A DNA stretch of 64,000 bases from Candidatus Spongiisociaceae bacterium (GCA_965262915.1 OZ253564.1:352001-416000); one strand, 5' to 3'. Counted from the stretch's first letter, positions 18,372 through 63,961 are shown. The notes: a model not told the origin generated them from the sequence alone. Made by a program: numbers and translations.

Positions 18372-19380
18372 ACCCCGCGGATCGCGACAGCACATTCGGT
18401 GCCGGCGCCGCCGAACCGCTGTTGTCGGTGCGCGACCTGCACGTCGAGATCGACACCGAGGACGGCGTGCTCACCGCGGTGAACCGGATGAGCTTCGACC
18501 TCTACGCCGGTGAGGTCCTAGCCATCGTGGGCGAGTCCGGGTGCGGCAAGACCATGACTGCCCTGTCCATACTCGGGCTCCTTCCCCGCAAGGCGGCGCG
18601 TCTGGTACGCGGCGAGGTAAGGCTGGGCGGCGAGGATCTGCTGGCCGCGCTACCGCAACGGATGCGGCAGGTCAGGGGAGCGGAGATCGCCATGATCTTC
18701 CAGGAACCGCTCACGGCACTCAACCCGGTGCAACGGGTCGGTGACCAGATCGCCGAGATGATCCGCACCCACCGACCCGTGCGCCGGTCCGAGGCCCGCC
18801 GCCGCGCCGCCGGGTTACTCGACCGGGTGGGGATACCCGACGCGGCCCGGCGGGCTCGCCGGTACCCGCACGAACTCTCCGGCGGGATGCGCCAGAGGGT
18901 GATGATCGCCATGGCGATCACCTTGGAACCGGCGGTCCTGATCGCCGACGAGCCGACCACCGCGCTCGACGCCACGGTTCAGGCCCAGGTGCTCGAAGTC
19001 CTGTCGGACGTGCAGCGGGGGCTGTCCGGCGCGATGGTCCTGATCACCCACGATATCGGTGTGGTGGCCGACCTCGCCGACCGGGTGGTGGTGATGTACG
19101 CGGGCCGCTCGGTGGAGCAGGGTTCCGTCTACGACGTTTTCGAGCGGCCCCTCCATCCCTACACGGCCGGCCTGCTCGGCGCCGTACCCCGAGTGGACGG
19201 AACGGCCGACCGTCTCAATCCGATCACCGGAACGCCCCCACCCTCATCGTCCTTCCCGATGGATGCGCCTTCGCTCCCCGCTGCCACATGGCCACCGAGA
19301 TCTGCCTGGTGCAGAAGCCGGAACCCCGGCCGTCCACCGGCGAGACCGGGTCGCCGGCCGTTGCCTGCCACCATGCGTAG
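18368..19380 (+). CDS. Peptide ABC transporter ATPase (DppD-like), frameshift near the C-terminus
   Basis: GESGCGKT, LSGGMRQR, LIADEPT. Adding one C at the run 19235-19239 restores GCAFAPRC...VACHHA* ending at TAG 19378-19380. Confidence 0.88.
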
Positions 19381-19411
19381 TCAGGTGCCAGACACCCCAG
19401 GAGCGTAAATG

Positions 19412-20647
19412 TCAAGCTGCGGCTCGGTCGATGGTGGTTCGGTGTGCCCATGCGGTGTGTTCGTTGTAGGGGGTTTGGTGTTTGAGGCAGCCGTGGAGGA
19501 TGCCGACGAGTCGGTTGGCGAGGGCTCGGAGTGCTTGGTGGTGGAGGTCGTCGGCTGCTCGGCGTTTGTCGTAGAAGGCTCGGGCTCCTGGACTGTTCTT
19601 TAGGGAACAGAACGCCCATTGGTCCAGGGCGTCGTAGAGACGCCGGTTACGGACCTGGCGAGCCAGGACAGCGTGCTTGCGGCCTGACGCCACTGTGATG
19701 GGCGACGTGCCGGCGTAGTTCCTGCGAGACTTGGCGCTGGTGTAACGGTCGGGGTCGTCCCCGAACTCACCGAGCGCCCGGGCGCCGAGCACAGTACCGA
19801 GTCCTGGCTGAGACAGGTAGATGTCGGCGTCCGGGTGTTCTCTAAAACGGGTCTCGAGGGTTGCTTGGAGGTCTGCGATCTGGCGGTTGGTTTCCACAAT
19901 GAGTTTCACCAGTGCCCCAACAGTCGCCCCGAAGGCGTCCGCGACCGGCCCCGGCGCGGTGAGATGGCGGGTACGGAGACCTTTCTGTATGCGGCGGGCA
20001 ACCTTGTCGAGGTTGCGTCGCCGTCCGCCCCTCTGTAGCGCTGCTCGGATCTGGGGCAGTGTCAGGCGGGCGCCCAGGATTGGGGTGGGTGCCCGACCGA
20101 GTATGGCCACAGCGTCGCGATGGGCCAGGTCATCGAAGGTTTCCAGCGCTGCGGGATAGTACTCGCGCAGGGCGTTGCGGACTTGGTTGGTGTGACGCGT
20201 CCGAGCCCAGATCAGGTTCTGATGCGTTCTGGCCATGATCTTGATCGCGTCTGATTCGGGGCTGTCACCGGCCACCGAACGATGGTTGTGACGGTCGGTG
20301 CGTACCAAATCAGCTAACACCTTGGCATCACCGCGGTCTGATTTCGCTCCGCCCAGGCTGTGACGGTCCCGGTAGCGGGACACAGCCCTAGGATTGATCG
20401 CATACACCAAATAGCCCGCTGCGATGAGCGCACCCACCCACAGCCCACGATCGGTCTCGATCCCTACCACCACCTCAGCTGCATCCGATGCGTGTTCGGC
20501 GACCAACTCATGGAAGCGGGCTATACCTTGGATCCCTTCCGGGAGATGGGCGAAACCCAGCCGGGTCCCATCCTCGTCCATCAGATACACATCATGGTGG
20601 CCCTCAGCCCAGTCGTTACCCACAAATATCATCCCTTCCTCCTTCAA
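19412..20647 (-). CDS. IS110 transposase / bridge recombinase, intact
   Basis: DEDD RuvC-like motifs (GNDWA, GIET, KSDRGDA), NYAGTSP and ASGRK catalytic-Ser region, ALRALANRL. Confidence 0.95.
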   Translation of the reverse strand: MKEEGMIFVGNDWAEGHHDVYLMDEDGTRLGFAHLPEGIQGIARFHELVAEHASDAAEVVVGIETDRGLWVGALIAAGYLVYAINPRAVSRYRDRHSLGGAKSDRGDAKVLADLVRTDRHNHRSVAGDSPESDAIKIMARTHQNLIWARTRHTNQVRNALREYYPAALETFDDLAHRDAVAILGRAPTPILGARLTLPQIRAALQRGGRRRNLDKVARRIQKGLRTRHLTAPGPVADAFGATVGALVKLIVETNRQIADLQATLETRFREHPDADIYLSQPGLGTVLGARALGEFGDDPDRYTSAKSRRNYAGTSPITVASGRKHAVLARQVRNRRLYDALDQWAFCSLKNSPGARAFYDKRRAADDLHHQALRALANRLVGILHGCLKHQTPYNEHTAWAHRTTIDRAAA

Positions 20648-20684
20648 CGGGGATCGATCCTTGCCGAGCTGTAGAACACGCCTG

Positions 20685-20865
20685 GCGGCGACCTAATGGA
20701 TCAGTGCTCTGTGGCACGCCACCCCATGAGCGCTACAAGCGGCCCTCGCGAACCGGCCGGGGTACGATCTGGCACTAGGAATCAGCGTTCCGGGTGCCAC
20801 CAGTACTCACCGGCCAGCCAGCTCAACCACCACACCCTCCCAGACAAACCAGCAGAAGTGGTGGA
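20685..20865 (-). ncRNA. Predicted bridge RNA of the IS110 element (ends approximate)
   Basis: Target loop guides TGGCACC (20793-20799) and GTGCCAG (20769-20775) around a GGAA/TTCC stem. Donor loop guides TGGGGTG (20720-20726) and CCATTAG (20693-20699) around a GTGC/GCAC stem. Confidence 0.8.
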
Positions 20866-20873
20866 CCCCCATT

Positions 20874-21055
20874 AGGTGCCAGGTGCCAGGTGCCAGGTGC
20901 CAGGTGCCAGGTGCCAGGTGCCAGGTGCCAGGTGCCAGGTGCCAGGTGCCAGGTGCCAGGTGCCAGGTGCCAGGTGCCAGGTGCCAGGTGCCAGGTGCCA
21001 GGTGCCAGGTGCCAGGTGCCAGGTGCCAGGTGTCTGGGGTCAGGTGCCAGGTGTT
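20874..21055 (+). repeat. Heptamer tandem array (AGGTGCC)x22 plus 4 terminal units, three of them degenerate
   Basis: 22 perfect units at 20874-21027, then AGGTGTC TGGGGTC AGGTGCC AGGTGTT. Confidence 0.97.
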
Positions 21056-21098
21056 CGCGTTGCCTGGCCACTTGCCACCGTAGACCAATCGATACATA

Positions 21099-21341
21099 AT
21101 GATGGTTATGGAAGGAATGCTCGCTGCCATGATCGGCCTCGTAGGCGCCCTCCTGAGCGCACTCCTCATCTGGATCCGCTCCGACATCAAGGCCCAGCGC
21201 GTCGAGATGAACTCGGCCCTCGAAGGCATGAGGGCCACGTTGACCGAGCACGGCGAGCGGCTCGCCCGCATCGAGACCACCCTCGGAGCCCCGGCGTCCT
21301 CCCCCGAAACCGCCGCTGCAGAAGCGGTCGTCACCCCCTGA
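21099..21341 (+). CDS. Small TM + coiled-coil protein, paralog 1
   Basis: EGMLAAMIGLVGALLSALLIWIRSDIK...EHGERLARIETTL; near-identical blocks in the next ORF. Confidence 0.7.
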   Translation: MMVMEGMLAAMIGLVGALLSALLIWIRSDIKAQRVEMNSALEGMRATLTEHGERLARIETTLGAPASSPETAAAEAVVTP

Positions 21342-21419
21342 CCAACCCCCACCCCGCATACCCGGCGCGACCGGCCCTCCGGCACCCGGCCTTGCCCTCC
21401 CTGGAACCAATGTTGTATA

Positions 21420-21704
21420 GTGTTGGATATAGAAGGAATGCTCGCTGCCATGATCGGTTTCGTGGGTGTGCTGGTGAGCGCACTCCTCATGTGGATCCGC
21501 TCCGACATCAAGTCCATCCGGACAGAGACGAACTCCCGGTTCGACGCCATGGACCGCCGGTTCGACACGGTGGACCGCCGATTCGACACCGTGAACACCA
21601 TCCTGGCCGAGCACGGGCAACGGCTCGCCCGCATCGAGACCGTCCTCAGCGTCCCGGTATCTCCTCCCGAGCAAGCCTCCACGGAACCCGCCGTCGCCGG
21701 CTGA
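21420..21704 (+). CDS. Small TM + coiled-coil protein, paralog 2, with heptad (21-bp) repeats
   Basis: EGMLAAMIGFVGVLVSALLMWIRSDIK...RFDAMDRRFDTVDRRFDTVN...EHGQRLARIETVL. Confidence 0.7.
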   Translation: MLDIEGMLAAMIGFVGVLVSALLMWIRSDIKSIRTETNSRFDAMDRRFDTVDRRFDTVNTILAEHGQRLARIETVLSVPVSPPEQASTEPAVAG

Positions 21705-21776
21705 CCTCGCAGCGCCCACGGGCCTGCCGTCCCGCGTGTTGGCTCCTCGATCGAGGGACCGTAGAATCCCGGCACT

Positions 21777-22985
21777 ATGAGGCCTCTCGAAGACATCCGG
21801 GTTGTCGCCGTGGAGCAGTACGGCGCCGGTCCGTTCGGCTCGCTCCATCTCGCCGACCTGGGCGCCGAGATCATCAAGGTCGAGGACCCGCGGTTCGGCG
21901 GCGACATCGGCCGCTACATACCTCCGTTCCAGGAGGGTGAGGACAGCTTGTTCTTCGAGACCTTCAACCGCAACAAGAAGAGCCTCTCCCTCAACCTGTC
22001 GGTCCCGGAGGGCCGCCGCGTCTTCGAGGATCTGGTGGCCAGGAGCGACGCGGTGTTCTCGAACCTCCGGGGGGACGTGCCGGCCAAGCTGCGGATCCGC
22101 TATGACGACCTGGCCGCGGTCAACCGGAGGATCGTGTGCGTCTCGGTGAGCGGGTTCGGGATGACCGGGCCGCTGTCGACCGAGCCGGGCTACGACTACA
22201 TCCTCCAAGGGCTGGCCGGGTGGATGAGCCTGACCGGAGAACCGGAGGGACCGCCCACCAAGACCGGAATATCGCTGGTGGACTACTCGGGAGGATACGT
22301 GGCGGCCATCGCCCTGCTGGCCGGCGTGCACGCCGCCCGGCGCGACGGGAAGGGGATGGACTGCGACATCAGCCTCTACGACGTCGCCGTGTCGCTGCTC
22401 ACCTATCCGGCCACCTGGCACCTCAACAAGGGCTGGCTGCCGGCCCGTACCACTCGATCCGCCCATCCGTCCCTGGTCCCTTTCCAGCTGTTCAAGGGGA
22501 GCGACGGCAACTGGTTCCTGGTGGGGTGCGCCAAGGAGAAGTTCTTCGACCGGGTGGCCGAGACGGTGGGTCGGCCCGAGCTGGCCGACCATCCCGACTA
22601 CGCGACTTTCGCGGATCGGGCGGCGAACCGTGGCGCCCTGATCGGGATCCTCGACGAGCTGTTCGCCCGGCATCCGGCCGGCTACTGGATCGCCCGCTTC
22701 AAGGAGGTGGGTGTCCCGACCGGACCCATCCAGGACGTGCCGTCCGCGCTGAAACACCCCCATACCGCCGCCCGCAAGCTGATCGTCGAGACCTCCCACG
22801 AAGCGTTCGGCACCATGCTCTCGCCGGCCAGCCCGGTCCGGGTGGGTGACCCCGACGACTATTCCTACGTGCGGGCTCCGCACCGCAACGAGCACGCCGA
22901 CGAGATACTGCGGTCGCTGCTCGGCTACGACGACGACACGATCCGCGACTTCTCCGAGAGCGGGGCCTTCGGGGAACCCGGATGA
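21777..22985 (+). CDS. Family III CoA-transferase (CaiB/BaiF)
   Basis: AGPFGSLHLADLGAEIIKVE, NRNKKSL, GYDYILQG, SLVDYSGG. Confidence 0.93.
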   Translation: MRPLEDIRVVAVEQYGAGPFGSLHLADLGAEIIKVEDPRFGGDIGRYIPPFQEGEDSLFFETFNRNKKSLSLNLSVPEGRRVFEDLVARSDAVFSNLRGDVPAKLRIRYDDLAAVNRRIVCVSVSGFGMTGPLSTEPGYDYILQGLAGWMSLTGEPEGPPTKTGISLVDYSGGYVAAIALLAGVHAARRDGKGMDCDISLYDVAVSLLTYPATWHLNKGWLPARTTRSAHPSLVPFQLFKGSDGNWFLVGCAKEKFFDRVAETVGRPELADHPDYATFADRAANRGALIGILDELFARHPAGYWIARFKEVGVPTGPIQDVPSALKHPHTAARKLIVETSHEAFGTMLSPASPVRVGDPDDYSYVRAPHRNEHADEILRSLLGYDDDTIRDFSESGAFGEPG

Positions 22986-24343
22986 CCGACCCGGCGACCC
23001 TCTCCGAACGCTTCGTCGCATGGAGCACCCGTCTGGAAGCAGTCCCGGACGAAGTACGCCGGTTTGCCAGGTGGCACGTCCTCGACGCGTTGGGGACCGG
23101 ACTGGCGGCGGCCCGGCTGGGAGCCGTCGGATTCGCGGTGGAAGAAGCGATGAGCTACCGGACACCGGCCGAGGCGAGCATCCTCGGCCACAGCTCCCGC
23201 CATCCGGCGCCGATGGCCGCCCTCGCCAACGGCACCCTCATCCACGCACTCGACTTCGACGACACCCACGCCGCAGCGATCCTGCACGGCTCGGCCGCGG
23301 TGCTCCCGTCGGTGCTGGCGGTCTCGGAGATCGTCGATGCGGATCTGGACACCGCCGTCGATGCCTACGTGGTGGGCGTCGAGATGGCAGTGAGGGTCGG
23401 TGCGGCTGCTAGCAGGAAGTTCCACAGCCGAGGATTCCACGCAACCAGCGTCGTCGGTATCTTCGGAGCCGCCCTCGCCGCATGCCGCCTGCTCGGCCTG
23501 GGTGCGCCGGCGACGGTCAACGCTCTGGGCATCTCCGGCAGCCAGGCCGCCGGCTCGCTCGAGTTCCTGTCCACCGCCTCCCTGACGAAACCGCTCCACC
23601 CCGGATGGGCCGGCCTATCGGCGGTGATGGCCGCCCGCATGGCTGCCCGGGGCGCGACCGGGCCCGCCAGCATCCTGGAAGGCGGGTGGGGCGTGTACCG
23701 CTCGTACGCCGACACGGCGGTCGACATCGACCGGGTTACCACCGGGCTGGGCGAAGATTGGGAGGCGACGCAGATGACCTGCAAGCCGTATCCGGTCTGC
23801 CAGTACTCCCACGCCACCCTCGACACGCTGGCGCTGCTGCCCGACGACCTGAACCCACGGCGTATCAGCCGTATCGACATCGGTCTCCCCAAGGATTCGC
23901 TGGTGGTGGTCGCCGAGCCCAGGGAAGCCCGGCTGAGGCCGCGCACCACCCACGAAGCCAAGTTCAGCGTGCAGTGGAACGTCGCCACCCTGCTTCTCGA
24001 CGGGTACCTGAGTGTCGACCACTTCACGGGGGCACAACTCACCAGAGAGGATGTACGTCAGTTGGCCGCCAAGGTATTCGTGTATCGGCGGCCCTTCGAA
24101 GGGTCGCTCGGCGAAGCCCCCGGCGACGTCAGGGTCACCCTCGACGGTGGTGAGATCATCGCCCGAACCGTGACCAGTAGCTCCGCCACCCCGGGCCAAC
24201 CCGTCGACGAAGGCGCCCTCCTCGACAAGTTCCTTTCGAACGTGGCGGGGTCGGTCGACAACGCGGAGGGTATGGCCAAGCTGGTGATCGAGGACGGTGG
24301 GCTACCCGTCAGGGAGCTCATGTCCATGACGGGACGTCGATGA
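22982..24343 (+). CDS. MmgE/PrpD family protein
   Basis: ANGTLIHALDFDDTH, RGFHAT, KPYPVC, EAKFS. Confidence 0.92.
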   Translation: MTDPATLSERFVAWSTRLEAVPDEVRRFARWHVLDALGTGLAAARLGAVGFAVEEAMSYRTPAEASILGHSSRHPAPMAALANGTLIHALDFDDTHAAAILHGSAAVLPSVLAVSEIVDADLDTAVDAYVVGVEMAVRVGAAASRKFHSRGFHATSVVGIFGAALAACRLLGLGAPATVNALGISGSQAAGSLEFLSTASLTKPLHPGWAGLSAVMAARMAARGATGPASILEGGWGVYRSYADTAVDIDRVTTGLGEDWEATQMTCKPYPVCQYSHATLDTLALLPDDLNPRRISRIDIGLPKDSLVVVAEPREARLRPRTTHEAKFSVQWNVATLLLDGYLSVDHFTGAQLTREDVRQLAAKVFVYRRPFEGSLGEAPGDVRVTLDGGEIIARTVTSSSATPGQPVDEGALLDKFLSNVAGSVDNAEGMAKLVIEDGGLPVRELMSMTGRR

Positions 24344-27084: not shown

Positions 27085-28247
27085 TGGACTTCAGTCTGAG
27101 CGACGAGCACGCCCTATTTCGCTCCACCGTTCGCGAGTTCGTAGACCGTGAAATACGGCCTGTGGCCATCGAATGGGAGCACAGCGGCCGCTATCCCACC
27201 GAGATAGTCGAGACCATGAAGCAACTGGGCCTGTTCGGCCTCACCGTTCCCGAGGAGTACGGCGGTCTGGGGGCCGACCTGATCACTCTGGCGATCGTGT
27301 TCGAGGAGATCAGCCGCGGGTGGATGGGAATCGCCGGGATCCTCGGCAGCCACACCCTCTCGTGCTTCATGATCGCCAAACACGGCACCGAGGAACAGCG
27401 CCGGACCTACCTGCCGGACCTGGCAACCGGCGCTCGCCGTACCGGCCTCGCCCTGACGGAGCCCGATGCCGGGACCGACCTGCAAGGCATCAAGACCAGG
27501 GCAGTCCGGGACGGTGACGACTACGTGATCCAGGGCACCAAGATGTGGATCACCAACGCTCGTCACGCCGACCCGCTCCCGGTCCTCGTCAAGACCGATC
27601 CCGAAGCCGTCCCGCCACATCGCGGGATGAGCGTGCTCCTGGTCGAGGCCGGGACGCCTGGTTTCTCGGTATCCCGTGATCTCCCGAAGTTGGGTTACAA
27701 GGGAACCGAGAGCTGCGAGGTGGTGCTCGACGACGTGCGCGTCCCGTCGGCCAACCTCTTGGGAGGAATGGAGGGCCGCGGCCTGCAGCAGGTTCTGGGC
27801 GGCCTCGAGATCGGACGCATCAACATCGCCGCGCGCGGGGTGGGTATAGCACATGAGGCCTATAGCCAGGCGCTGGCCTACAGCCGGGAACGGCACGCTT
27901 TCGGCCAGCCGATCTCCGGTTTCCAGGCAATACAGATGAAGCTGGCCGAGATGGCCACCAAGGTGCAGGCAGCCCGGCTGCTGACCTGGTGGGCGGCCGC
28001 CGAGGCCGACAAGGGCAAGCGGGTTGATATCGAGGCGGGCATGGCCAAGTACTTCGCTTCGGAAGCGGGGGTGGAGAACGCCATCGACTCCATGAGGATC
28101 CACGGCGGCATGGGCTACTCCCAGGAACTCGACATCGAGCGCCTCTACCGGGACGCTCCCTTGATGGTCATCGGTGAGGGAACCAACGACATACTGAAGA
28201 TGGTCATCGCCAAGGGACTCGTGTCGGAGCGGGCAGTAATTGATTAG
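27084..28247 (+). CDS. Acyl-CoA dehydrogenase
   Basis: LALTEPDAGTD, GTKMWITN, FQAIQMKLAEM, IHGGMGY, IGEGTNDI. Confidence 0.95.
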   Translation: MDFSLSDEHALFRSTVREFVDREIRPVAIEWEHSGRYPTEIVETMKQLGLFGLTVPEEYGGLGADLITLAIVFEEISRGWMGIAGILGSHTLSCFMIAKHGTEEQRRTYLPDLATGARRTGLALTEPDAGTDLQGIKTRAVRDGDDYVIQGTKMWITNARHADPLPVLVKTDPEAVPPHRGMSVLLVEAGTPGFSVSRDLPKLGYKGTESCEVVLDDVRVPSANLLGGMEGRGLQQVLGGLEIGRINIAARGVGIAHEAYSQALAYSRERHAFGQPISGFQAIQMKLAEMATKVQAARLLTWWAAAEADKGKRVDIEAGMAKYFASEAGVENAIDSMRIHGGMGYSQELDIERLYRDAPLMVIGEGTNDILKMVIAKGLVSERAVID

Positions 28248-28266
28248 GTGCCGGGTGCCAGGGGCC
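28246..28266 (+). repeat. Short degenerate heptamer array overlapping a stop codon
   Basis: AGGTGCC GGGTGCC AGGGGCC beginning inside TAG 28245-28247. Confidence 0.7.
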
Positions 28267-28370
28267 AGTCGGGTAGTCGGCGGCCGGCGATCCCTTAGCG
28301 GCGGGATCTCCCTCGTCGTGCCCTTCGGCGGGCATATAGTGGAAGCGCAGTCAGAATAGGGAGAGGGAGG

Positions 28371-28964
28371 GTGGTCGGCTTGCCTTCGAGACTTCGGAAA
28401 CAACTCCTCGAAATACTCACCGAGAAAGCCCTGCGCGCCCTTGACAGGCCAGTGCGGCTGTCCTCCGGCGCGTGGTCCTCCCATTTCGTCGACGGCAAGG
28501 AGGGCTTGGCGGCCTGGCGAGATCTTCATGTTGCATCCCAAGCAATCGTCGAGACCGTCACCGACGCCGGGTTTTCTTTCGATGCTGTCGGGGGCCTTAC
28601 TATGGGTGCCGACGCTTTATCCGTTGGAGTAGCTGCTGTGAGCGACACCAGTTGGTTCGCCATTCGCAAAAAGCCCAAGGAACACGGCACAAAAAGGCGG
28701 ATCGAGGGCGCGCGGCTAGAGCCGGGCGTCAAGATACTCCTCGTCGACGACGTGGTAACAACGGGCGGGTCGATCCTCAAGGCCTTGGGTGTCGTCCAAG
28801 GGACCGGTGCGGATATCGTGGCAGCAGTAACCCTCGTAGATCGAGGTGACCTGGCACGCGCGAAACTGCGAGAACGTGGAATCGCCTACTTCCCTATGGC
28901 AACGTATGAGGACCTCGGCATAGAGCCGGTGACGTTTGGAGTCGTGGCTAGCGCGACTGGCTGA
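28371..28964 (+). CDS. pyrE: Orotate phosphoribosyltransferase-like PRTase
   Basis: LSSG, VGGLTMGAD, RKKPKEHG, LLVDDVVTTGGS (PRPP loop), LVDR. Confidence 0.75.
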   Translation: MVGLPSRLRKQLLEILTEKALRALDRPVRLSSGAWSSHFVDGKEGLAAWRDLHVASQAIVETVTDAGFSFDAVGGLTMGADALSVGVAAVSDTSWFAIRKKPKEHGTKRRIEGARLEPGVKILLVDDVVTTGGSILKALGVVQGTGADIVAAVTLVDRGDLARAKLRERGIAYFPMATYEDLGIEPVTFGVVASATG

Positions 28965-29307
28965 GGACGGCCTCGTTGCCTTCCCGCCAGCCGAGCTCAA
29001 CTCGCTCGCGACGTGGTGCCGCGAGTACTGCTGGGCCTCTGGGCATGTTGCCTATTGCGTGCTGAGCGATCTGTTCTGGAAGCTCCACGTCGCGTGGGAG
29101 GGACCGATCCGGCTGGCCACCGCAGACGCGATGACTTCCGCCCTTGCTCGCGATATCCCAACGATTCTGGAAAGCGACACCGACACGGGCCGCTTTGTCG
29201 CCTTGGCCCTGCGGGAGGAGATCCTCCATATCCTCTCCTCACAGCCACGTCGATTGCCGTTCGGGGGTCAGTGGCCGGCATCTACTTCCCGGTCGGGTAG
29301 TCGGTAG
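28936..29307 (+). CDS. Hypothetical protein
   Basis: Protein-like composition, overlaps the end of the PRTase gene; no recognised motif. Confidence 0.4.
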   Translation: MESWLARLAEDGLVAFPPAELNSLATWCREYCWASGHVAYCVLSDLFWKLHVAWEGPIRLATADAMTSALARDIPTILESDTDTGRFVALALREEILHILSSQPRRLPFGGQWPASTSRSGSR

Positions 29308-38797: not shown

Positions 38798-38898
38798 GGA
38801 GAGTACTGAACGTTCCACCCGCGGCCCGTCGCTCAACCACGAACTGCCTGGTCAGCGGGCGGCGGGCCGGCAGCAATCCTCATCGTTCGGCCTTCTCC
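38798..38898. mobile_element. MITE family A, copy 3 (diverged), overlapping the cca 3' end
   Basis: TA-GGAGAGTACTGAACG ... CGTTCGGCCTTCTCC and the same internal GGCCCG..CGGGCC inverted repeat; the right-hand TA is lost. Confidence 0.65.
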
Positions 38899-40301
38899 CG
38901 GGCCGGTGGGGGACCGGGATCGTCCATGCCTTCTGCGAGGGCCAGCTCCCGCAAGATGGCGAAGGCCTCCGATCGCCCGTACGGACCGTCGTCGATCCGC
39001 TTGTCGAGCAGTACCTCGAGAAACGAGCCCACCATCGGGCCCGGACCGATCCCCAGGTAGCCCATCACGTCATGGCCGTCGACGGGCGGGCGGAGCGCAT
39101 CCAGTTCCTCCCGGGCACGGAGTAGCTCTATTCGTTCCTCCAACTCGTCGATCTGGCGCTGGATCCGCAGGGCCCGGCGGTCGCTCCGGGTGGTGACGTC
39201 ACACCTGGCCAACTGGTTGAGCTTGGGGAGCAACTCCCCGGCGTCGCGAACGTAACGTCGTACCGCAGAGTCGCTCCAGCCCATCTTGAAGGTGTGGGCT
39301 CTCATATGCAGGAACACGAGCTCGGCCACGTCCTCGATGATGCTCTTGGGATAGCGGAGCCGGCGGAGGCGAACCCGCGTCATCCGGGCCCCCACCACCT
39401 CATGGTGATGGAAGGTCACCTTCGGACCGTCGAAGTGGCGCGTAGCCGGTTTTCCGACATCGTGGAAGACGGCCGCCAGCCGCAGCACCAGGTCCGGTTC
39501 GGTCTTGGCCATCACGGCCAGCGAGTGGGCGAGAACATCCTTGTGGCGGTGGTCGGGATCCTCGGTCATGGCCAGCGCCGGGATCTCGGGAATGAACCCG
39601 CCCGCCAGCCCGGACTCGATCATCAGCGTCAGGGCCGGCGCCGCCCGCTCGCCCACCACCAGCTTGGAGAACTCGTCCCGGATCCGCTCGGCGCTGACGA
39701 TTGCCAGGCGATCCTTCATCACGGACACGGCCGCCAGATCCCCACGGTCGGGGCGGAAGCCCAGCTCGGCCACGAACCGGAAGAGGCGCACCATCCGGAG
39801 CGGGTCGTCGGAGAAGGACGCCTCCGGACCGATCGGGGTACGGAGCGTCTGTGACGCTATGTCGACCACGCCCCCGAACGGGTCGGCCAGGGTGGGGGCG
39901 TCGCTACCGAGCTTCAGCGCAATGGCGTTGACGGTGAAGTCGCGCCTCGCCAGGTCTTCCTCGATGGAGCCGCCGAAGGTCACTTCGGGGCGGCGGCTTC
40001 CGGGCGAGTAGGCCTCCGCCCGGAAGGTGGTGATCTCGCAGCGGATTCCATCCCGCACCGCGCCGATGGTCCCGAACCGCTCGCCGACTCCGTACAGGTC
40101 GTCGGCCCAATGCCGGAGCAGCGCTCTCATGCGTTTGGGACGGGCGTCGGTCGCGAAGTCCAGATCCGACGCCTCCCTGCCCAGCAGAGCATCGCGAACC
40201 GACCCTCCGACCAGGTACAGGTCGTGGCCGGACCTCGCAAAGAGATCGGCCAGATCGCGGGTGAGGCCTTGGCCGAGCCACCTCAGGCGTTCGGGGATCA
40301 T
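38880..40301 (-). CDS. cca: CCA tRNA nucleotidyltransferase with HD domain
   Basis: LVGGSVRD, DLDFAT, DLARRDFTVNA, DDPLRM, FHDVGKP. Confidence 0.93.
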   Translation of the reverse strand: MIPERLRWLGQGLTRDLADLFARSGHDLYLVGGSVRDALLGREASDLDFATDARPKRMRALLRHWADDLYGVGERFGTIGAVRDGIRCEITTFRAEAYSPGSRRPEVTFGGSIEEDLARRDFTVNAIALKLGSDAPTLADPFGGVVDIASQTLRTPIGPEASFSDDPLRMVRLFRFVAELGFRPDRGDLAAVSVMKDRLAIVSAERIRDEFSKLVVGERAAPALTLMIESGLAGGFIPEIPALAMTEDPDHRHKDVLAHSLAVMAKTEPDLVLRLAAVFHDVGKPATRHFDGPKVTFHHHEVVGARMTRVRLRRLRYPKSIIEDVAELVFLHMRAHTFKMGWSDSAVRRYVRDAGELLPKLNQLARCDVTTRSDRRALRIQRQIDELEERIELLRAREELDALRPPVDGHDVMGYLGIGPGPMVGSFLEVLLDKRIDDGPYGRSEAFAILRELALAEGMDDPGPPPAREKAER

Positions 40302-40408
40302 CGTGGTCAGTGGTCAGTCGTCGATAGTCGGTAAGCATACATTATGTATCGTTGGGCGGTCACTTCCGTCCGGCAAATGACCACCGGCCAGCGGCAACCG
40401 GCCCTTGC

Positions 40409-42935: not shown

Positions 42936-43086
42936 CGGCTACTGACCGCTGATCGCCGACCGCTAACCCGTTCATTAAGATCCGGCGTTACTGACTACTG
43001 CCCATTGGCAAAGGCCCTATGCACCCAACCCCGCGGCCGGATCGCCCACCGACCACCAGCCACTGACCACTGACTTACCGGACCCG

Positions 43087-50540: not shown

Positions 50541-50543
50541 GCT

Positions 50544-56707: not shown

Positions 56708-57132
56708 CCGGCCGATGGTCCAGGGACCGGGTGGAGTGGGCCCTCGTGCACTTCGAGGAGGAGGAGGCGCGCGCGCTCCGGCTCATCTGGGAGGATGCGG
56801 AGCGACGGCGGGAAGAGGAGCGGACGGAGGGGATGGTGATCGTGCCGGACGCTGTCGGCACGATCATGTCGCGGCTGGGACTGCCGTCGATCGGGCTGCT
56901 CGAGGAGTTGACCCGCCGGTGGGAGGAGTTGGCCGGGCCGCAATGGGGTTCCCACGCAGCACCGATCGTGGTAAGACATGGCGAGTTGCTGGTGGAGGCC
57001 TCCGACCGTCGGATAGTGCGGCGTCTCCGTCACGACACGGCCCGACTGGTGGACCGGTTGGCCGAACACTTCGGTACCGGCTTCGTCAGGAAGGTGAGAG
57101 TGGTGAGCCCACCCGGACGGAGGGGCTGGTGA
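56704..57132 (+). CDS. DciA (DUF721) family protein
   Basis: RWEELAGPQWGSHAAP...GELLVEA; position between recF and gyrB. Confidence 0.75.
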   Translation: MTGRWSRDRVEWALVHFEEEEARALRLIWEDAERRREEERTEGMVIVPDAVGTIMSRLGLPSIGLLEELTRRWEELAGPQWGSHAAPIVVRHGELLVEASDRRIVRRLRHDTARLVDRLAEHFGTGFVRKVRVVSPPGRRGW

Positions 57133-57341
57133 CAGTCGATGAGTGATCCTATCGAATACCCTGGTCAGAGGGCATTTCCTGCTATCTGGAGACCGCTGGC
57201 CGAACCTTGGAATGGTCGCTCGTGTCAACTAGAATCGACGGTATCGGCGCAGGTCGCCCGACAGGGCTTTAAGCGGTCCTGCGCCCAGGGCCGGAACGGC
57301 CGACCGCCCCGGACACAGGGGATGACTATCGAGGGAAGAGC

Positions 57342-59252
57342 GTGACTGCGAAGCCGTCGTCGAGCTATGGCGCCAAGGACATCAAGGTCCTCCCGGGCCT
57401 GGAAGCCGTACAGCGGCGACCGGGGATGTACATCGGAACGACGGGTCCCCGCGGGCTCCATCATCTGGTGTGGGAGGTGGTGGACAACTCGGTGGATGAG
57501 GCCATGGCGGGGTTTGCCAGCCGCATGGATGTGGTTCTCCAGGCCGACGGCGGTTGCCGGGTGGCCGACAACGGGCGTGGCATCCCCGTGGCGCGACACG
57601 CGCTGACTCGCAAATCGGCTCTGACCACGGTTCTCACCACCCTGCATGCGGGCGGCAAGTTCGAGGAGGGCGCCTATACGGTGTCGGGCGGCCTGCACGG
57701 GGTGGGCGTATCGGTGGTCAACGCCCTGTCCTGTCGCCTGGAGGCGGAGGTGGTACGGGACGGGTTCCGCTGGTCGCAGGCCTTCATGAAAGGCAAGCCT
57801 GTGACGGCCGGTGTCCAGAAGGGCCGGGCCGCTCGCCGCACGGGGACCATCATCACCTTCTGGCCCGATCCCGACGTGTTCACCGATACGGTGCGCTTCG
57901 CCTACGGCACCGTGTCCCAGCGCCTCCGCGAGCTGGCCTTCCTGAATCGCGGTCTGGAGGTGCGGCTGACCGACGAGCGGGAGGGCGGCCGCTCCGACAC
58001 TTTCTGTTACGAGGGCGGCATCCGTGATTTCATCCTGCATCTCAACGGCCCCAGGGAGGCCCTCCACGGCCGGGTGATGTATCTGGACGACGTGGGGGAG
58101 GAGGCCGAACTGGAGGTGGCCATGCAATGGACCACTTCCTTCAACGAGAACGTGCTGAGCTTCGCCAACAACATCAACACGCACGAGGGCGGTACCCACG
58201 AGGAGGGCTTCCGGACCGCGCTGACCAAGGCCATAAACGACTTCGCCCGCTCCAAGAACCTCCTGAAGGAGAAGGACAGCAACCTCGGCGGGGAGGATGT
58301 CCGGGAGGGGCTGACCGCGGTGATCTCGATCAAGGCCCGCAATCCCCAGTTCGAAGGCCAGACCAAGACCAAGCTGGGGAACACCGAGATCCGCAGTTAC
58401 GTCCAGAAGTCCCTCAACCGGATGCTGCCGGAGTGGCTGGAGCGGCACTCGGCGGACGCCCGCAGGATCGTCGAGAAGGCCCGCCAGGCCCAGCACGCCC
58501 GCGAGGCGGCCCGCAACGTCCGGGACGTGATCCGCCGCAAGTCCCTGCTGGACTCCTCCCGGCTGCCCGGCAAGCTGGTGGATTGTTCCTTGCGGGACCC
58601 GGAACGGGCCGAGCTCTTCATTGTGGAGGGGGACTCGGCGGCGGGTCCGGCCAAGAACGGGAGAGACTCCAGCTTCCAGGCGGTCCTACCGATCCGGGGC
58701 AAGATCATCAACGTCGAGAAGGCTCGCCTCGCCAGGGCCTTGCAGAACAAGGAGATACAGGCCCTCATCACCGCTATCGGCACCGGGATCGGCGAGGACT
58801 TCGAGATCGCCAAGGCCCGGTACCACAAGGTGATCCTGCTCACCGACGCCGACGTGGACGGTGCCCATATCCGGACTCTGCTGCTCACCTTCTTCTTCCG
58901 ACACATGCAACCGCTGATAGAGGCGGGGTACATGTACATAGCGGTGCCGCCCCTCTACCGCGTCAAGATCGGGCGGCGGGTTCACTACCTGGCCGACGAC
59001 GCCGCACTGGAAGCCTTCAAGGCCGGCCACCCCAAGGCCCGACCCACCAGGTTCAAGGGACTGGGGGAGATGAATGACGAGGAGTTGGGCGAGACGGCCC
59101 TCGATCCCGAGAGCCGCACCCTGGTCCAGGTCGAGATGGTCGACGCCGCCCACGCCGATGAGATCTTCTCGACCCTCATGGGCGGGGATGTGGCGGCCCG
59201 GAAGAGTTTCATCCAGCAGAACGCGGGCGATGTGCGCTTCCTGGACATCTGA
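57342..59252 (+). CDS. gyrB: DNA gyrase subunit B
   Basis: RPGMYIG, EVVDNSVDE, GGLHGVG, VEGDSA, TDADVDG, RFKGLGEM. Confidence 0.97.
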   Translation: MTAKPSSSYGAKDIKVLPGLEAVQRRPGMYIGTTGPRGLHHLVWEVVDNSVDEAMAGFASRMDVVLQADGGCRVADNGRGIPVARHALTRKSALTTVLTTLHAGGKFEEGAYTVSGGLHGVGVSVVNALSCRLEAEVVRDGFRWSQAFMKGKPVTAGVQKGRAARRTGTIITFWPDPDVFTDTVRFAYGTVSQRLRELAFLNRGLEVRLTDEREGGRSDTFCYEGGIRDFILHLNGPREALHGRVMYLDDVGEEAELEVAMQWTTSFNENVLSFANNINTHEGGTHEEGFRTALTKAINDFARSKNLLKEKDSNLGGEDVREGLTAVISIKARNPQFEGQTKTKLGNTEIRSYVQKSLNRMLPEWLERHSADARRIVEKARQAQHAREAARNVRDVIRRKSLLDSSRLPGKLVDCSLRDPERAELFIVEGDSAAGPAKNGRDSSFQAVLPIRGKIINVEKARLARALQNKEIQALITAIGTGIGEDFEIAKARYHKVILLTDADVDGAHIRTLLLTFFFRHMQPLIEAGYMYIAVPPLYRVKIGRRVHYLADDAALEAFKAGHPKARPTRFKGLGEMNDEELGETALDPESRTLVQVEMVDAAHADEIFSTLMGGDVAARKSFIQQNAGDVRFLDI

Positions 59253-59261
59253 GCGGGGGGA

Positions 59262-61709
59262 GTGCCTGTGAGCGATCGCATAACCGAGAGCGGGTCTCCG
59301 CCCGGCCGCGTGGTCGATATCAACGAGGAGATGGCCCGCTCCTTCGTGGAATACGCCATGTCGGTAATCGTCTCCCGGGCGTTGCCGGACGTGCGGGACG
59401 GGCTCAAGCCTGTGCAGCGGCGGATCATCTACGCCATGGACGACATGGGCGTACGTCCGAGAGCTTCGCACCGCAAGTCGGCCACCGTGGTGGGTGAAGT
59501 GATCGGTAAGTACCACCCCCATTCCAACGACGCCATCTACGACGCCTTGGTGCGGATGGGCCAGTCGTTCTCCCTCCGGTACCCGCTGATCCATCCGCAG
59601 GGCAACTTCGGGACTAGCGACGACCCGCCCGCGGCTATGCGCTACACGGAGTGCCGGCTGGCGGAGTTGGCGGCGGTGCTCCTGGACGGGATAGACGAGG
59701 ACACGGTCGACTTCGCGGACAACTTCGACGGGTCGGAGTCCGAGCCCGTGGTCCTCCCGTCCCGGTTCCCCAACCTGCTGGTGAACGGATCCCAGGGGAT
59801 CGCGGTGGGTATGGCGACCAACATCCCGCCCCACAACCTGGACGAGATCGTCGAGGCCTGCCTCTACGGACTGGAGCATCCCGACGCCGGCCCCGAGGAC
59901 TACCTTTCCATCGTCAAGGGTCCCGACTTCCCGACCGGTGGGTACGTGGTGGGCACCAAGAAAGTCCGCCAAGCCCTGGTGTCGGGCCGGGGGTCCGTCA
60001 AGATGCGAGCGGTCACCGACATAGAGCAGACCCGCAAGGGCCGGACCGCCATCGTCGTGACCGAGCTGCCCTATCAGGTGGGCCAGGACCGGGTCATGGA
60101 GCGGATCGCCCACCTCGTACAGCAGAAGACACTGACCGACATCGCCGATCTGCGCAACGAGTCGTCGTCCCGAGTCGGGGTACGTCTGGTCATCGAGCTC
60201 AAGAAGCGAGCCGTCCCCAGGGTGGTGCTGAACCAGCTGTTCAAACACACCAAGCTTCAGGATACGTTCGGGGTCAATGCGGTGGCTCTGGTCGACGGGG
60301 TGCCCCGGACGCTGAGCGTGGCCGAGATGGTCCATTACTTCCTGGACCATCAGATGGAGGTCATCGAGCGCCGGACCCGCTACCGGCTCGACCGGGCCCT
60401 GGCCAGGGCCCACATCCTCGAGGGCCTGATCGTGGCGGTCGACAATATCGACGAGGTGATCGCCATCATCCGTCGGAGCCGGGACGCGGAACGGGCCAGG
60501 TTGGCTCTGATGGAGCGGTTCCCGCTGTCGGAGATCCAGGCCCGGGCCATTCTCGACATGCCGCTGCGCCGCCTCACCTCGCTCGAAACCGCCAAGCTCC
60601 GGGCCCAGCACGCCGCCCTCCAGGAGTTGATCGCCGACCTGAGGGGGATCCTGGCGGACCCGGCCCTCCGCCGGGAGATCATCGCCGCGGATCTGGCCGC
60701 CACCCGAAAGGCCCATGGGGACCCGCGCCGCACCCGGATCCTCCCGGCCGAGGCCGAGCTGTCCCTCGAGGACCTGATCGCCGACGACGAGTTGATCGTC
60801 ACGGTATCCGCCAAGGGCTATGTCAAATCGGTCAAGGCCGCCACCTACCGGTCGCAGGGTCGCGGCGGGAGGGGGGTGAAGGCGGCTGCCCTGCGGGATG
60901 ACGACTACCTGACCCATGTCATCCACACCACCGCTCTCGCCTACCTGCTGTTCTTCACCAACCGGGGCCGGGTGTACCGCGTTCGGGCGCACGAGATCCC
61001 CCGCAAGGCCCGCACCGCCAGGGGGGTGCTCGCCCAGGGGGTGTTGCCCCTCGAGCCGGAGGAACGCATCGAGGCGCTGGTGGACACCCGCGACTACGAG
61101 TCCTTCAAGTACATGGTCATCGTCACCAAGAGGGGAAAGGTCAAGCGGACCGCATTCCGGGAGTACGACAGCCGTAACACGAGGCTGGTGGCGATAAGCC
61201 TGACCACCGACGACGAGGTGGTGGCGGTTCGCTCAACCGACGGGAACAGCGACATCCTCCTCTTTACCCGTCAGGGGTTGGGAATCCGGTTTTCCGAGGA
61301 CGACATCCGGCCTATGGGCCGGTCGACGCGGGGCGTCAGGGGCATCAAACTCGATCAGGACGACGAGGTGGTGGGAGCAGGGGTTACCTTGGACGGTAAC
61401 GAGATGCTGTTGGTCACCTCGGGTGGCTACGGGAAGCGCACCAAGGTGGACGCTTTCAGGCCCCAGAAGAGAGACGGCAGGGGCTTGAAAGCCATCAACC
61501 TCTCGGCGGCGCGCGGGAAACTCGTCGGGGCCCACGCGGTAACGGAGGGGAGCGAGGTGTTCGTGGTCTCGTCGGAAGGGATCGCCATCAGAATGGAGAC
61601 GGACTCGATCAGCCGCCAGGGTAGGTACACCATCGGGGTCAAGGTGATGAACCTCCCGGAGGGTGCCCGGGTCAGCTCGTTCGCTCTCGTGCCGAAGGAC
61701 AAGCAGTGA
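59262..61709 (+). CDS. gyrA: DNA gyrase subunit A
   Basis: [23 protein letters not shown], GyrA-box-like QGRGGRG, C-terminal repeats. Confidence 0.97.
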
Positions 61710-61746
61710 CGAGCCGGATGGTCATCGCCGGGCGGTCCGCCCCCGG

Positions 61747-62205
61747 ATGATCGGAGCGGTGGACTCATCCGGAGCAGGCCAGGCGACCACCAGGCGCCGA
61801 GTCCGGAGGATCCTGCGCAAGTTCGACCCGTGGACCGTTTTCAAGGTGGCCTCGGTGCTGTCCGCGCTGGCCGCCCTCGGGTTGGTGCTGCTGTCGGTGA
61901 TCGTCTGGGCGGTGATAAGCCGGCTCGGTCTTACCCCCGCCCTGGACTCCGCCGCCGAGCGGGTGGCGCTGATCGAGCCGGGTGCTTCCCTGTTCAAGAC
62001 AGGCGCCGAGTACCTGCGCGGCATGGTGCTGCTGGCGGGTAGCTGGATGATGGGCGCCACGTTGGCGGTCACCGTAGGGTCGGTCCTCTACAACCTGGGC
62101 GCCGAGCTGGTCGGGGGGATCGAGTTCACCGTGTACGAGGAGGTTCCGGTGGAGGCACCCGGTTCCGGTGAGGGCGGCGCAGCGGGATTCGGGAGCAGCT
62201 TCTGA
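61747..62205 (+). CDS. DUF3566 family membrane protein, copy 1
   Basis: RKFDPWTVFK...LYNLGAELVGGIE. Confidence 0.8.
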   Translation: MIGAVDSSGAGQATTRRRVRRILRKFDPWTVFKVASVLSALAALGLVLLSVIVWAVISRLGLTPALDSAAERVALIEPGASLFKTGAEYLRGMVLLAGSWMMGATLAVTVGSVLYNLGAELVGGIEFTVYEEVPVEAPGSGEGGAAGFGSSF

Positions 62206-62669
62206 TGGCCACCGTCCGGCGCGTCCGCCGGGTGATCCGCAAGTTCGATCCGTGGACGGTCTTCAAGCTCTCGCTCCTCCTCCATGTGGTGTTCGCGCTG
62301 GCCACCCTGATCGGGTTGGTCATCCTGTGGTCGTTGATGGTCAGGGTCGGTATCCCAGAGGCTCTGGACCGGTTCCTGGCCCTCATCAGCCTCATAGAAG
62401 ACGGCACCGTCTTCTTCAACAACGGCAGCAGGTTCATGCGGGTGGCGGTGTTCTTCTCGGTGGTGTTCGGCATCACGATGACCCTGCTCTCCACCCTGGC
62501 GGCGGTCTTCTACAACCTCACGTCGGACGTGGTCGGGGGTGTGGAGGTGGTGATGCTGGAGGAGACCCTCCGAGTACCGTCACCACCCGAACAGGCACCG
62601 GCCTACGCAGTGCCGACCGCGGTAGCCGTTCCCCAGGATCAGGCGGATCTGCCCACGATGCCCCACTAG
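62205..62669 (+). CDS. DUF3566 family membrane protein, copy 2
   Basis: RKFDPWTVFK...FYNLTSDVVGGVE. Confidence 0.85.
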   Translation: MATVRRVRRVIRKFDPWTVFKLSLLLHVVFALATLIGLVILWSLMVRVGIPEALDRFLALISLIEDGTVFFNNGSRFMRVAVFFSVVFGITMTLLSTLAAVFYNLTSDVVGGVEVVMLEETLRVPSPPEQAPAYAVPTAVAVPQDQADLPTMPH

Positions 62670-62723
62670 GTGTCAGGTGTCAGGTGTCAGGTGCCGGGTG
62701 TTAGGTGTTAGTGGTCAGTGGTC
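62668..62723 (+). repeat. Heptamer array starting in a stop codon
   Basis: (AGGTGTC)x3 AGGTGCC GGGTGTT AGGTGTT (AGTGGTC)x2. Confidence 0.9.
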
Positions 62724-62935
62724 AGCATCAAATAACAAATAATAGCGGCTAGAAGCATGTTAAGACCTTCACTGGCCACTAGCCCTGATTCCTCAGACAC
62801 ACGGGCCCGATGTTCCACTACCGGCCGGGGGAAGTCGACAGGTGCGCTCAGTCGCCGCTCACCATCCCTCAGGACCAAGCGGACCTCCCGACCCTTGCCC
62901 AGTAGCCGGTTGTCCGTAACGAGTGGTATTCGTTC

Positions 62936-62973
62936 CCTGGCACCTGGCACCTGGCACCTGACACCTGGCACCT
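62936..62973 (-). repeat. Heptamer array on the minus strand starting in a stop codon
   Basis: AGGTGCC AGGTGTC (AGGTGCC)x3 from TAG 62972-62974. Confidence 0.9.
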
Positions 62974-63961
62974 AGAAGTCGATCGTCAGTCCCTGGTAGA
63001 TGGGGTCGTAGTAGCCACCGCCCTCGAGGTAGTCCGGATTCCACACTCTCGTAGCGTCGTCGTTCTCCCGGTAGACGAACGGTGAGCGATGGAGCCGCTC
63101 CCGGTGGAAGCGACCCTCCCGACCCGCCGGTATGTCGGTTCCGCTTCCGTACAGGAGGAGGCCGCCCTCGGCGTAGACCTCGTGCTGCGGGTCGACGTCC
63201 CGGTACTCATGGCTGGCGTTGATCAGCTTGTGTCCGAGTTCGTGGGCAATGGTTTTCCAGGACGTCGGTTGGGACAGGTCGGCGAGCGTGATCACCCCCC
63301 TTATGTGGCGGGGGAGGATCTCCCCGTACGAGTAGCCGGGAAAGGACATCGCGCGGGTGGCCAGCGTCTTGCGCTGCCACGTCCGCTGGTCGAGTTGCTC
63401 GTAGAAGGACATGAAGACGTCTTGGAGAATGACGATATGGATCCGGCGGTCGCGGTCGGGGCCATCCGGGATCACCGTCTCGAAGACCGATCGTGCCTCG
63501 TCGGACATGCGGACGGGCCGTTCCTGACGCTCCTCGTACGGGTTGGCGTACCGGCTGCCCGGTAACTCCGAGCCGGGTGCCTCGGCCTGGACCGAGAGGA
63601 GAGAAGGATCGATCGAGCCGGTCCGGACCGACACCACAGCGAGCTGCACCCCTGCCCGCCGGAAGACCCGCTTGGCTTCGGCCAACCCGTCGAGGACCGC
63701 CTCCAGCCGCACCTTCCTCCGATGCGCCGGGCGTAGGTTGTCCGGGTAGTAGACAGCGATGTCGACGGTCGGCTCGCCGTCGGCCAGGTCGGCGTTGAAG
63801 CCATCGGGATCGACGGGACTCTCGACGCCCCACAGGGTCCGCCCCGCGGTGGGACCGCCGGCCGGTGTATCTTCACCTACGTGCATCGATACCAGTGCTC
63901 CCTCCGCGACGTGACGGCGTTGTGTCCGCGTCCTGATCGTACGCGACGCCGGCCCGGCCAT
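62972..63961 (-). CDS. Zinc metallopeptidase-like protein (HExxH); start uncertain
   Basis: WKTIAHELGHKLINASHE motif. Confidence 0.65.
   Translation of the reverse strand: MAGPASRTIRTRTQRRHVAEGALVSMHVGEDTPAGGPTAGRTLWGVESPVDPDGFNADLADGEPTVDIAVYYPDNLRPAHRRKVRLEAVLDGLAEAKRVFRRAGVQLAVVSVRTGSIDPSLLSVQAEAPGSELPGSRYANPYEERQERPVRMSDEARSVFETVIPDGPDRDRRIHIVILQDVFMSFYEQLDQRTWQRKTLATRAMSFPGYSYGEILPRHIRGVITLADLSQPTSWKTIAHELGHKLINASHEYRDVDPQHEVYAEGGLLLYGSGTDIPAGREGRFHRERLHRSPFVYRENDDATRVWNPDYLEGGGYYDPIYQGLTIDF

Follow-up and report, generated by a model that had tools for sequence, protein, structure and literature searches.

Heptanucleotide arrays that lie with the same polarity at gene boundaries are found across several phyla, and the cause of this arrangement is unexplained. 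In the description given by Rehm et al. 2015 (PMC4692102), the G-rich intergenic heptamers of Xanthomonas (GGGAATC) and of Nostoc PCC 7120 (GGGGAYT) lie for the most part 0-50 bp from a stop codon and on the gene's coding strand, some of them overlapping that codon, and are found on the non-coding strand upstream of starts. The portions of that report drawn on here also describe heptamers between the same genes in related species, where length and sequence vary, as well as some inverted pairs, and treat their function as unexplained. The TAACTGA direct repeats of marine Beggiatoaceae and of some cyanobacteria and Bacteroidetes are, in the portions of MacGregor 2015 (PMC4679880) used here, oriented and mostly intergenic, produce stops in all three frames in one orientation, and show lineage-specific patterns. 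Some repeats of other kinds receive mobile elements: the IS110-family elements IS621 (Durrant et al. 2024, PMC11208160), ISPpu9 and ISPpu10 land in repetitive extragenic palindromic (REP) sequences. The subject of the present analysis is a set of AGGTGYC heptamer arrays in the genome of a Candidatus Spongiisociaceae bacterium (GCA_965262915.1), together with an IS110-family element lodged within several of them. The window from which the analysis departs is the whole 64,000-nt stretch at bases 352001-416000 of this single-contig genome of 5,055,038 bp, 64.4% G+C.

The genome under study is designated G000 in coordinates, and its best named relatives in a search with the acyl-CoA dehydrogenase of the window are uncultured Acidimicrobiia, one of which is assigned to a candidate family associated with sponges. 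Its arrays belong to the known, unexplained class of Xanthomonas/Nostoc heptamer repeats, which in cyanobacteria carry the older name of short tandemly repeated repetitive (STRR) heptamers; a limited literature search returned no title on heptamer arrays in Acidimicrobiia or on IS110 elements targeting a tandem repeat. The arrays are probably the dominant polar intergenic heptanucleotide family of this genome, fixed at gene boundaries and serving as a landing site for the IS110-family element.

Placement and polarity of the arrays

The arrays were mapped against gene ends obtained with a purpose-built open reading frame (ORF) caller, a codon log-odds model trained on long ORFs of high GC3, which gave 4046 genes over 78% of the genome with 2626 TGA, 1087 TAG and 333 TAA stops. 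The 131 AGGTGYC arrays of at least two units merge into 99 clusters, 43 of which have a sense-strand stop within -3 to +20 nt of their 5' end, where 200 rounds of random intergenic placement produced 2.99 on average and never more than 8. The opposite orientation, with the stop of an antisense gene at the 3' end of the cluster, is found in 4 of the 99. The AG of a TAG stop is shared with the array, at an offset of exactly -2, in 18 clusters (random placement, mean 0.035), and under a looser criterion a coding ORF ends within 30 nt of 47 clusters. Several of the clusters lacking a stop are distal halves of arrays split by an insertion sequence (IS) or second arms of inverted pairs. A first-pass annotation of the window had proposed, from four loci, that the arrays start at stop codons in one orientation relative to transcription; mapped genome-wide against stop, stop type and strand, both the anchoring at stops and the uniform sense orientation there hold.

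Comparison of repeat periods with Tandem Repeats Finder gives 111 intergenic arrays (6368 bp) with 54 stop adjacencies for period 7, 35 arrays with 11 stop adjacencies for its double, period 14, and at most 35 arrays with at most 4 stop adjacencies for each of the periods 6, 8-13 and 15. For the arrays of the window, chance is excluded because 32 two-unit matches with at most one mismatch occur where 0.14 are expected, a number reached in none of 100 shuffles. One higher-order array of 450 bp, with a 28-nt super-unit itself made of heptamers, lies away from predicted gene ends (G000 3561216-3561669).

The same annotation held that the arrays start consistently at TAG. This is correct to the extent that TAG is over-represented among the 43 stop-adjacent clusters (31, where 27% of stops genome-wide are TAG; p=8e-10), but the remaining 12 follow TGA, and the first unit of the array there is incomplete and may be cut at any phase (for example gtc, tc, c or ggcc). 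Moreover, one array of AGTTGCC and AGGTGYC units begins 3 nt after a tRNA-Leu, accompanied by a copy of the 95-bp core described below (G000 2648769-2648893); this is 1 of 51 tRNA/tmRNA genes. When a stop lies within 25 nt, the sense strand is G-rich in 47 arrays, C-rich in 12 and neutral in 5, whereas of the arrays with a start within 25 nt, 15 have a C-rich sense strand, 1 a G-rich one and 3 a neutral one. Because the sense strand is G-rich at stops and C-rich at starts, the rule is geometric rather than specific to stops: the G/T-rich strand has its 5' end against the gene boundary, whichever way the gene runs. Thus TAG is not the cause of placement, since TGA stops and a tRNA end are abutted as well and the start-side arrays are reversed. 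The TGA- and tRNA-adjacent arrays, together with non-stop boundaries without TAG, led to rejection of TAG as an insertion target, a candidate further weakened because predicted stops account for a small share of non-genic TAGs. A G/T skew common to 3' flanks in general was also rejected as a cause, as 2089 control gene ends show none.

Anchoring of the arrays is one-sided and the onset of periodicity is sharp. Among 78 clusters of at least three units, a sense stop is found on the 5' side at a median of 3 nt (50 of 78), while the neighbour on the 3' side is at a median of 140-185 nt. The fraction of bases identical to the base seven positions later, taken over 48 loci of this genome, is mostly 0.17-0.38 upstream of the stop, 0.46-0.50 at stop bases 2 and 3, and about 0.9 by base 9. 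The stop is in register with the array, TAG corresponding to the T-variant of CAG, the triplet at the unit junction. Of the suggestion that the repeat is seeded at TAG, what survives is that periodicity begins at the stop and that TAG is the T-form of CAG; the TGA and tRNA cases and the other units of the sister species speak against the rest. The units themselves number 311 AGGTGCC and 126 AGGTGTC, TAGGTGT-type arrays also exist in this genome, and neighbouring units within arrays are alike (199 CC-CC and 62 TC-TC pairs against 24 mixed). A polar order of unit families, with AGGTGYC proximal to the stop and other heptamers distal, was considered and is not claimed, in view of exceptions and a noisy parse.

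Orthologous gene ends and the IS110-family element

The congeners G001-G007, of which G002 is also referred to as the sister species, differ greatly in their content of such repeats. Matches to three consecutive AGGTGYC units number 192 in G000 and 3, 4 and 7 in three congeners, with none in the other 27 genomes searched. Four consecutive GGTG-N3 units match 217 times in G000, 982 times in G002, 165 times in G007 and 3 times in G001, and not in G003-G006. The unit families are species-specific. A control pattern of four GTGG-N3 units is abundant, with up to 370 matches, in a second genus of the family (G013, G034, G039 and others), which suggests other heptamer families there.

Orthologous gene ends illustrate how position and unit have parted. 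All 11 relatives share the codon at which the acyl-CoA dehydrogenase ends, with an array in G002 (TGA, then six TGGTGAA units) and in G007 (TAG, then TGGCTGG-type units) and none in the other nine, whose stop is TAA, TGA or TAG. The end of the DUF3566 gene gives the same pattern among relatives, and G007 has heptamer arrays at both of these two orthologous loci. On these same two stops, where G000, G002 and G007 carry arrays, G001 carries a different repeated element, whose hairpin-like start opens with CCCCGATT.

The sister species was sampled for 1.2 of its 4.4 Mb. In this sample 104 of 114 period-7 arrays are intergenic, 39 adjoin a stop, and of the 35 one-sided stop cases 32 have a G/T-rich unit on the sense strand. 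Polarity follows the rule seen in G000, with 43 G-rich and 10 C-rich arrays at stops and 0 G-rich and 13 C-rich arrays at starts, and the periodicity, at 43 loci, is 0.12-0.51 upstream and already 0.81 at stop base 1, and a TGA or TAG belonging to the unit itself usually serves as the stop. For 13 array-bearing gene ends of G000 with an orthologue in the sample, an array is present at the G002 stop in 8 clear and 2 weak cases and absent in 3, against a base rate of 39 stop adjacencies per 970 predicted genes. The units at these shared ends differ, only the weak remnant at 874940 being AGGTGYC-like, and in at least 4 of the 13 the G002 gene has array sequence for its stop or its last codons. 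We read these observations to mean that the array loci are probably old and fixed, that the unit has apparently turned over genome-wide, and that the gene-side edge may shift by a few codons. An exact 27-nt gene-end pattern had 0 matches in metagenome contigs, where neither another strain nor an empty IS site was seen.

Another source of information about the arrays is the element that inserts into them. Its transposase combines DEDD_Tnp_IS110 (PF01548, E=7.5e-34) and Transposase_20 (PF02371, E=1.7e-9) in one protein. The genome holds 11 full copies, 8 of them inside heptamer arrays, where the transposase is always antisense to the G-rich strand, the junctions are identical, and the insertion usually falls 1-4 units after the stop. 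The other three copies are diverged (86-87% identity) and lie in a second fixed repeated target (G000 4421934-4420451, 3638545-3640028 and 287303-288786). Insertion is sequence-specific, with CT at both junctions and no inverted ends. A 19-nt remnant of an IS110 end is also found within a heptamer array at about G000 5025585-5025605.

Alignment of the 5' non-coding ends of the 11 copies reveals two segments that vary together with the flanking sequence, even where this differs by the C or T of the heptamer. The first repeats the copy's own 5' flank and the second matches, as reverse complement, the 3' flank of that copy. This second segment reads GTGCCAGA in two copies within AGGTGCC arrays, GTGTCAGA in four copies within AGGTGTC arrays, GTGCTAGA next to an AGGTGCT unit, and CTGATAGA where the other target is used, in three copies. 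In the three diverged copies both segments have changed to fit the second target, which, judged from the alignment, would be a natural retargeting event. The proposal that the element exploits the arrays is thereby borne out, with 8 of 11 copies in arrays, in one orientation, and with guide segments matching the local heptamer variant. Targeting by putative bridge-RNA-like guides is well supported and is the best-supported mechanistic part of the account. With guides that track single-base variants of a repeat, the element would show bridge-RNA retargeting as it occurs naturally inside a single genome.

Array loci in the window and composite modules

The four loci on which the first-pass annotation was built, at the ends of a dppD-like gene, the acyl-CoA dehydrogenase, the DUF3566 gene and a minus-strand ORF, match its description on re-inspection (Table 1), including the sharing of the AG of TAG by the first unit at the last three and the inverted, facing arrangement of the last two, in which the minus-strand array is the inverted partner of the one at 62668-62708. 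Its corrected stop for the dppD-like gene is reasonable because the frame closing there has a typical DppD/OppD-type C-terminus. By contrast, P/R-rich nonsense makes up the end of the long ORF 17945..19408. The frame change lies upstream of the stop, near 19230, and may be a real frameshift or an assembly error. The name metallopeptidase for the minus-strand ORF, however, is without Pfam confirmation (0 families at E<=0.001). Looser heptamers had been listed at three further places and are present at all of them, one at 42936-42968 and two given in Table 1. These two belong to starts rather than stops: one is C-rich on the coding strand ahead of a start codon; the second is directly upstream of the start of a minus-strand ORF.

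Table 1. Array-related features of the window (positions counted from its first base)
Feature	Position	Strand	Basis or remark
TAG stop of dppD-like ABC ATPase	19378..19380	+	Frame with normal C-terminus; Pfam ABC_tran + oligo_HPY
Stop-proximal array remnant, one unit + AG, interrupted by IS	19383..19392	+	After TAG: TC, then AGGTGCC AG
IS110-family element	19393..20873	-	Transposase 19412..20647 (411 aa); 5' non-coding end 20648-20873 with two guide-like segments; CT at both junctions
Main portion of split array, 25.7 copies of AGGTGCC, beyond IS	20874..21055	+	Repeat search (copies at 20874-21053), unit-match count
Acyl-CoA dehydrogenase TAG stop overlapping 3.3-unit array (start 28246)	28245..28268	+	Pfam; orthologous gene ends
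Degenerate GTGGTCA units	40303..40322	+	C-rich complement directly upstream of start of minus-strand ORF 38880..40301
C-rich CCACTGA-type heptamers about 10 nt upstream of ATG 43087	43048..43076	+	Start-codon form of polarity rule
DUF3566 TAG stop (62667-62669) overlapping AGGTGTC/AGGTGTT array (start 62668), then two AGTGGTC units	62667..62725	+	Pfam; ORF 62205..62669
85-nt dispersed repeat between two facing arrays	62779..62863	.	At least 6 further genome copies, most beside arrays
TAG (62974-62972) of minus-strand ORF 62972..63961 overlapping 5.4-unit array (62973-62936)	62936..62974	-	Sequence, ORF

Some arrays are arms of larger modules, in which the core between a sense array and the antisense array that follows it is either 95 bp long (14 copies) or a mini core of 20 bp. 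These modules are sometimes in tandem, linked by a short palindromic junction, and the two ends of one of them (G000 874804-874960) coincide exactly with the TAGs of two convergent genes. The array-core-array modules look like miniature inverted-repeat transposable elements (MITEs). The arrays are nevertheless not filed as transposon ends, because their outer edges have no fixed phase, and the idea that all arrays are arms of hairpin modules was rejected, as an inverted arm of the same unit occurs within 300 nt in 11 of 42 clusters. Copies of the 85-nt repeat that lies between the facing arrays of the window are 90-95% identical (G000 69066-69149, 2207788-2207873, 2648463-2648546, 3202818-3202904 and others). 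The start of this repeat resembles the inverted ends of a MITE-like element of about 260 bp that is found whole in G006.

Explanations of the arrays and described systems

On the reading favoured here, the arrays would be slippage-prone tandem repeats fixed at gene boundaries, with the 5' end of the G/T-rich strand lying against a last base protected by selection. That base would usually be in a stop codon, once at the end of a tRNA and, for the opposite strand, immediately ahead of a start codon. Growth would be by replication slippage, loci would be homogenised among one another by gene conversion, and the gene-proximal edge would advance until purifying selection halts it, so that the stop codon is effectively a first, frozen unit. 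The AG would be shared because the array runs up to and partly into the stop, TAG being the T-form of CAG. The loci would be old, with the unit sequence replaced lineage by lineage over the whole genome, any role in RNA would be secondary or absent, and the IS110 element would use the arrays, through bridge-RNA-like guides, as a harmless landing site available in many copies.

Several points weigh against this reading. The mechanism for one-sided anchoring and for genome-wide change of the unit is only proposed. The polarity rule is broken by 12 of 59 stop-adjacent arrays here and, in the sister sample, by 10 of 53. A convergent next gene is commoner at arrays than expected (24 of 47 versus 29%; p=0.002), and selection for a function would explain the strong conservation of position between species equally well. 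In folding models, sense (AGGUGCC)n RNA folds well and the antisense does not. The DNA of most unit types is predicted to fold with no asymmetry between strands (0 kcal/mol on both strands for four unit types, and AGGTGCC no better than shuffles). A difference in DNA hairpin formation between strands was rejected as the cause of polarity, canonical folds amounting to 0 kcal/mol for most unit types. The underlying data impose limits as well: clusters with no adjacent gene are over-counted because the home-made gene calls cover 78% of the genome, and the comparison with the sister species draws on a sample of its genome.

The first-pass annotation had favoured a repeat system of the 3' untranslated region (UTR) acting in termination, RNA stability or protein binding. 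In this explanation a G/U-rich repeat would terminate transcription, block 3' exonucleases or bind a factor, alone or with an inverted C-rich arm; its GGUG core is presumably complementary to the CACC of the 16S 3' tail. The orientation at stops (43 sense versus 4), the retention of position across species as sequence changes, the enrichment at convergent pairs and the inverted partner arms of 11 of 42 clusters are all consistent with such a role, as is the model fold of sense (AGGUGCC)n through G-U pairs (-77 kcal/mol, z=-6.2, compared with z=+2.6 for the antisense) and the finding that within array loci sense RNA is predicted to be more structured than antisense (p=0.0002). However, AGGUGUC-rich arrays do not fold in the same models (z=+2.1), the sister units GTGGTGA and ATGGTGA lack C and give 0 kcal/mol as DNA, and the 150 nt that follow 47 array-bearing stops are no more structured than 150 control ends (-57.1 versus -55.5 kcal/mol; p=0.78). 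No hairpin followed by a T-run, as in an intrinsic terminator, was found at the arrays in positions 61500-64000 or 27500-29000 of the window, and a search of three array loci against Rfam returned a tRNA, one match at chance level and nothing else. One array, as noted, follows a tRNA gene, and arrays at start codons place the C-rich strand on the mRNA (15 versus 1 here, 13 versus 0 in the sister sample). With these start-side arrays opposite on the mRNA, no excess of folding, few partner arms and no terminator-like sites in the two window regions scanned, a dedicated 3'-UTR system is unsupported, and a functional 3'-UTR element in general is unlikely, albeit with an appreciable chance of being right. 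A further proposal, that the arrays insulate genes, concerns translation or transcription. A stop-bearing heptamer could act as an all-frame stop, because it gives stops in three frames within 21 nt, or the C-rich complement could be a loading site for Rho that blocks incoming transcription. By a reading of consensus units, about 29 of 32 sense stop-adjacent sister arrays have TGA or TAG in the unit, the gene's stop being the first such triplet, and the TAGGTGT-type arrays of G000 would behave similarly; the dominant units AGGTGCC and AGGTGTC, however, contain no sense-strand stop, and the next stops in the three frames come at a median of 64-84 nt past array-bearing stops. For the Rho version it can be said that a transcript entering a gene meets the C-rich form first, that a Rho gene is present in the genome, and that antisense RNA at array loci is predicted to be less structured than controls (mean -48.5 versus -54.7 kcal/mol), but cyanobacteria, in which the same placement rule applies, are generally held to lack Rho. 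Insulation in either form is very improbable.

Two further explanations invoke active processes at the DNA level. The arrays could be the terminal inverted repeats of a MITE-like element that inserts at TA or TAG, with stops as the main harmless targets in a GC-rich genome and solo arrays as its decayed remains. The composite modules with their 95-bp or 20-bp cores, the module spanning TAG to TAG of convergent genes, and the different MITE-like element on the same two stops in G001 are what this idea would lead one to expect. Yet the features that define a MITE, fixed termini and a target-site duplication, do not emerge: the array edge falls on the stop in arbitrary unit phase, partner arms are confined to 11 of 42 clusters, and a duplication was not established. 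Non-stop boundaries without TAG also carry arrays, predicted stops are 1087 of about 19000 non-coding TAGs while 19 of 23 TAG-started arrays, counted by eye, are on real stops, and arrays with differing units at orthologous positions are not what insertion of a single element family would produce. A transposase partner was not found, although no systematic search was made. There is little chance that this explanation is correct. It is also improbable, if slightly less so, that an active polar process, outside all systems so far described, keeps and rewrites the arrays, perhaps by templated or conversion-driven replacement of units from the gene-proximal edge, such that each species would have its own heptamer "dialect" and the process might overwrite the stop and last codons. 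The genus is well suited to these questions, with three congeners that have hundreds of arrays and four that have none. Orthologous positions, differing units and a base-resolved onset together allow the history of a locus to be separated from the history of its unit, and therefore both selection-limited encroachment, the mechanism favoured here, and an RNA function become directly testable in this genus.

Comparison with described systems places the arrays closest to the heptamers of Xanthomonas and Nostoc. As in the portions of PMC4692102 drawn on here, they have period 7, are intergenic and exceed repeats of other periods (here 111 arrays versus at most 35), they are G-rich on the coding strand at stops and on the non-coding strand upstream of starts, and they occupy the same intergenic positions in relatives with changed length and sequence (here in 8 and, more weakly, 2 of 13 cases). 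The units here hold only GG and no tracts of three or four G, unlike those of Xanthomonas and Nostoc, and would allow at best a two-tetrad form; for this reason the quadruplex reading of that report is not transferable. Those same portions of PMC4692102 record no association of the repeats with mobile elements, whereas the arrays here appear to be targeted by an IS110 element. Beyond what is described there, the onset here is resolved to the base at the stop codon, and the unit is wholly replaced between congeners. The TAACTGA repeats, in the portions of PMC4679880 used, resemble the present arrays in being oriented intergenic heptamers, some of which overlap the end of the upstream ORF; they are mostly found just upstream of starts, in "forward" orientation and in sets of 2-6, while the arrays here are anchored at stops and reach 25 copies.

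A different kind of likeness is to the REP sequences and bacterial interspersed mosaic elements (BIMEs) of enterobacteria, which are also dispersed, intergenic, located at gene 3' ends near stops, in some cases paired as inverted hairpins, and used as landing sites by IS110-type elements. The REP unit is an imperfect palindrome of about 35 nt, whereas the unit here is a non-palindromic tandem heptamer with an inverted partner in 11 of 42 clusters, so that the arrays fall outside the REP/BIME definition; no search for a REP-associated tyrosine transposase (RAYT) was made. The IS110-family element itself closely resembles the IS621 bridge-RNA recombinases, as far as these are set out in the portions of Durrant et al. 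2024 (PMC11208160) drawn on here, in the pairing of DEDD and Transposase_20 domains, in long upstream and short downstream non-coding ends, in the absence of inverted ends, in CT at the junctions, and in two segments that track the left and right flanks. Like the REP-inserting IS110 elements IS621, ISPpu9 and ISPpu10, it has a dispersed intergenic repeat as its target, but the target here is a tandem heptamer array rather than a palindromic REP, and individual copies here carry putative guides fitted to the C or the T variant of the unit.

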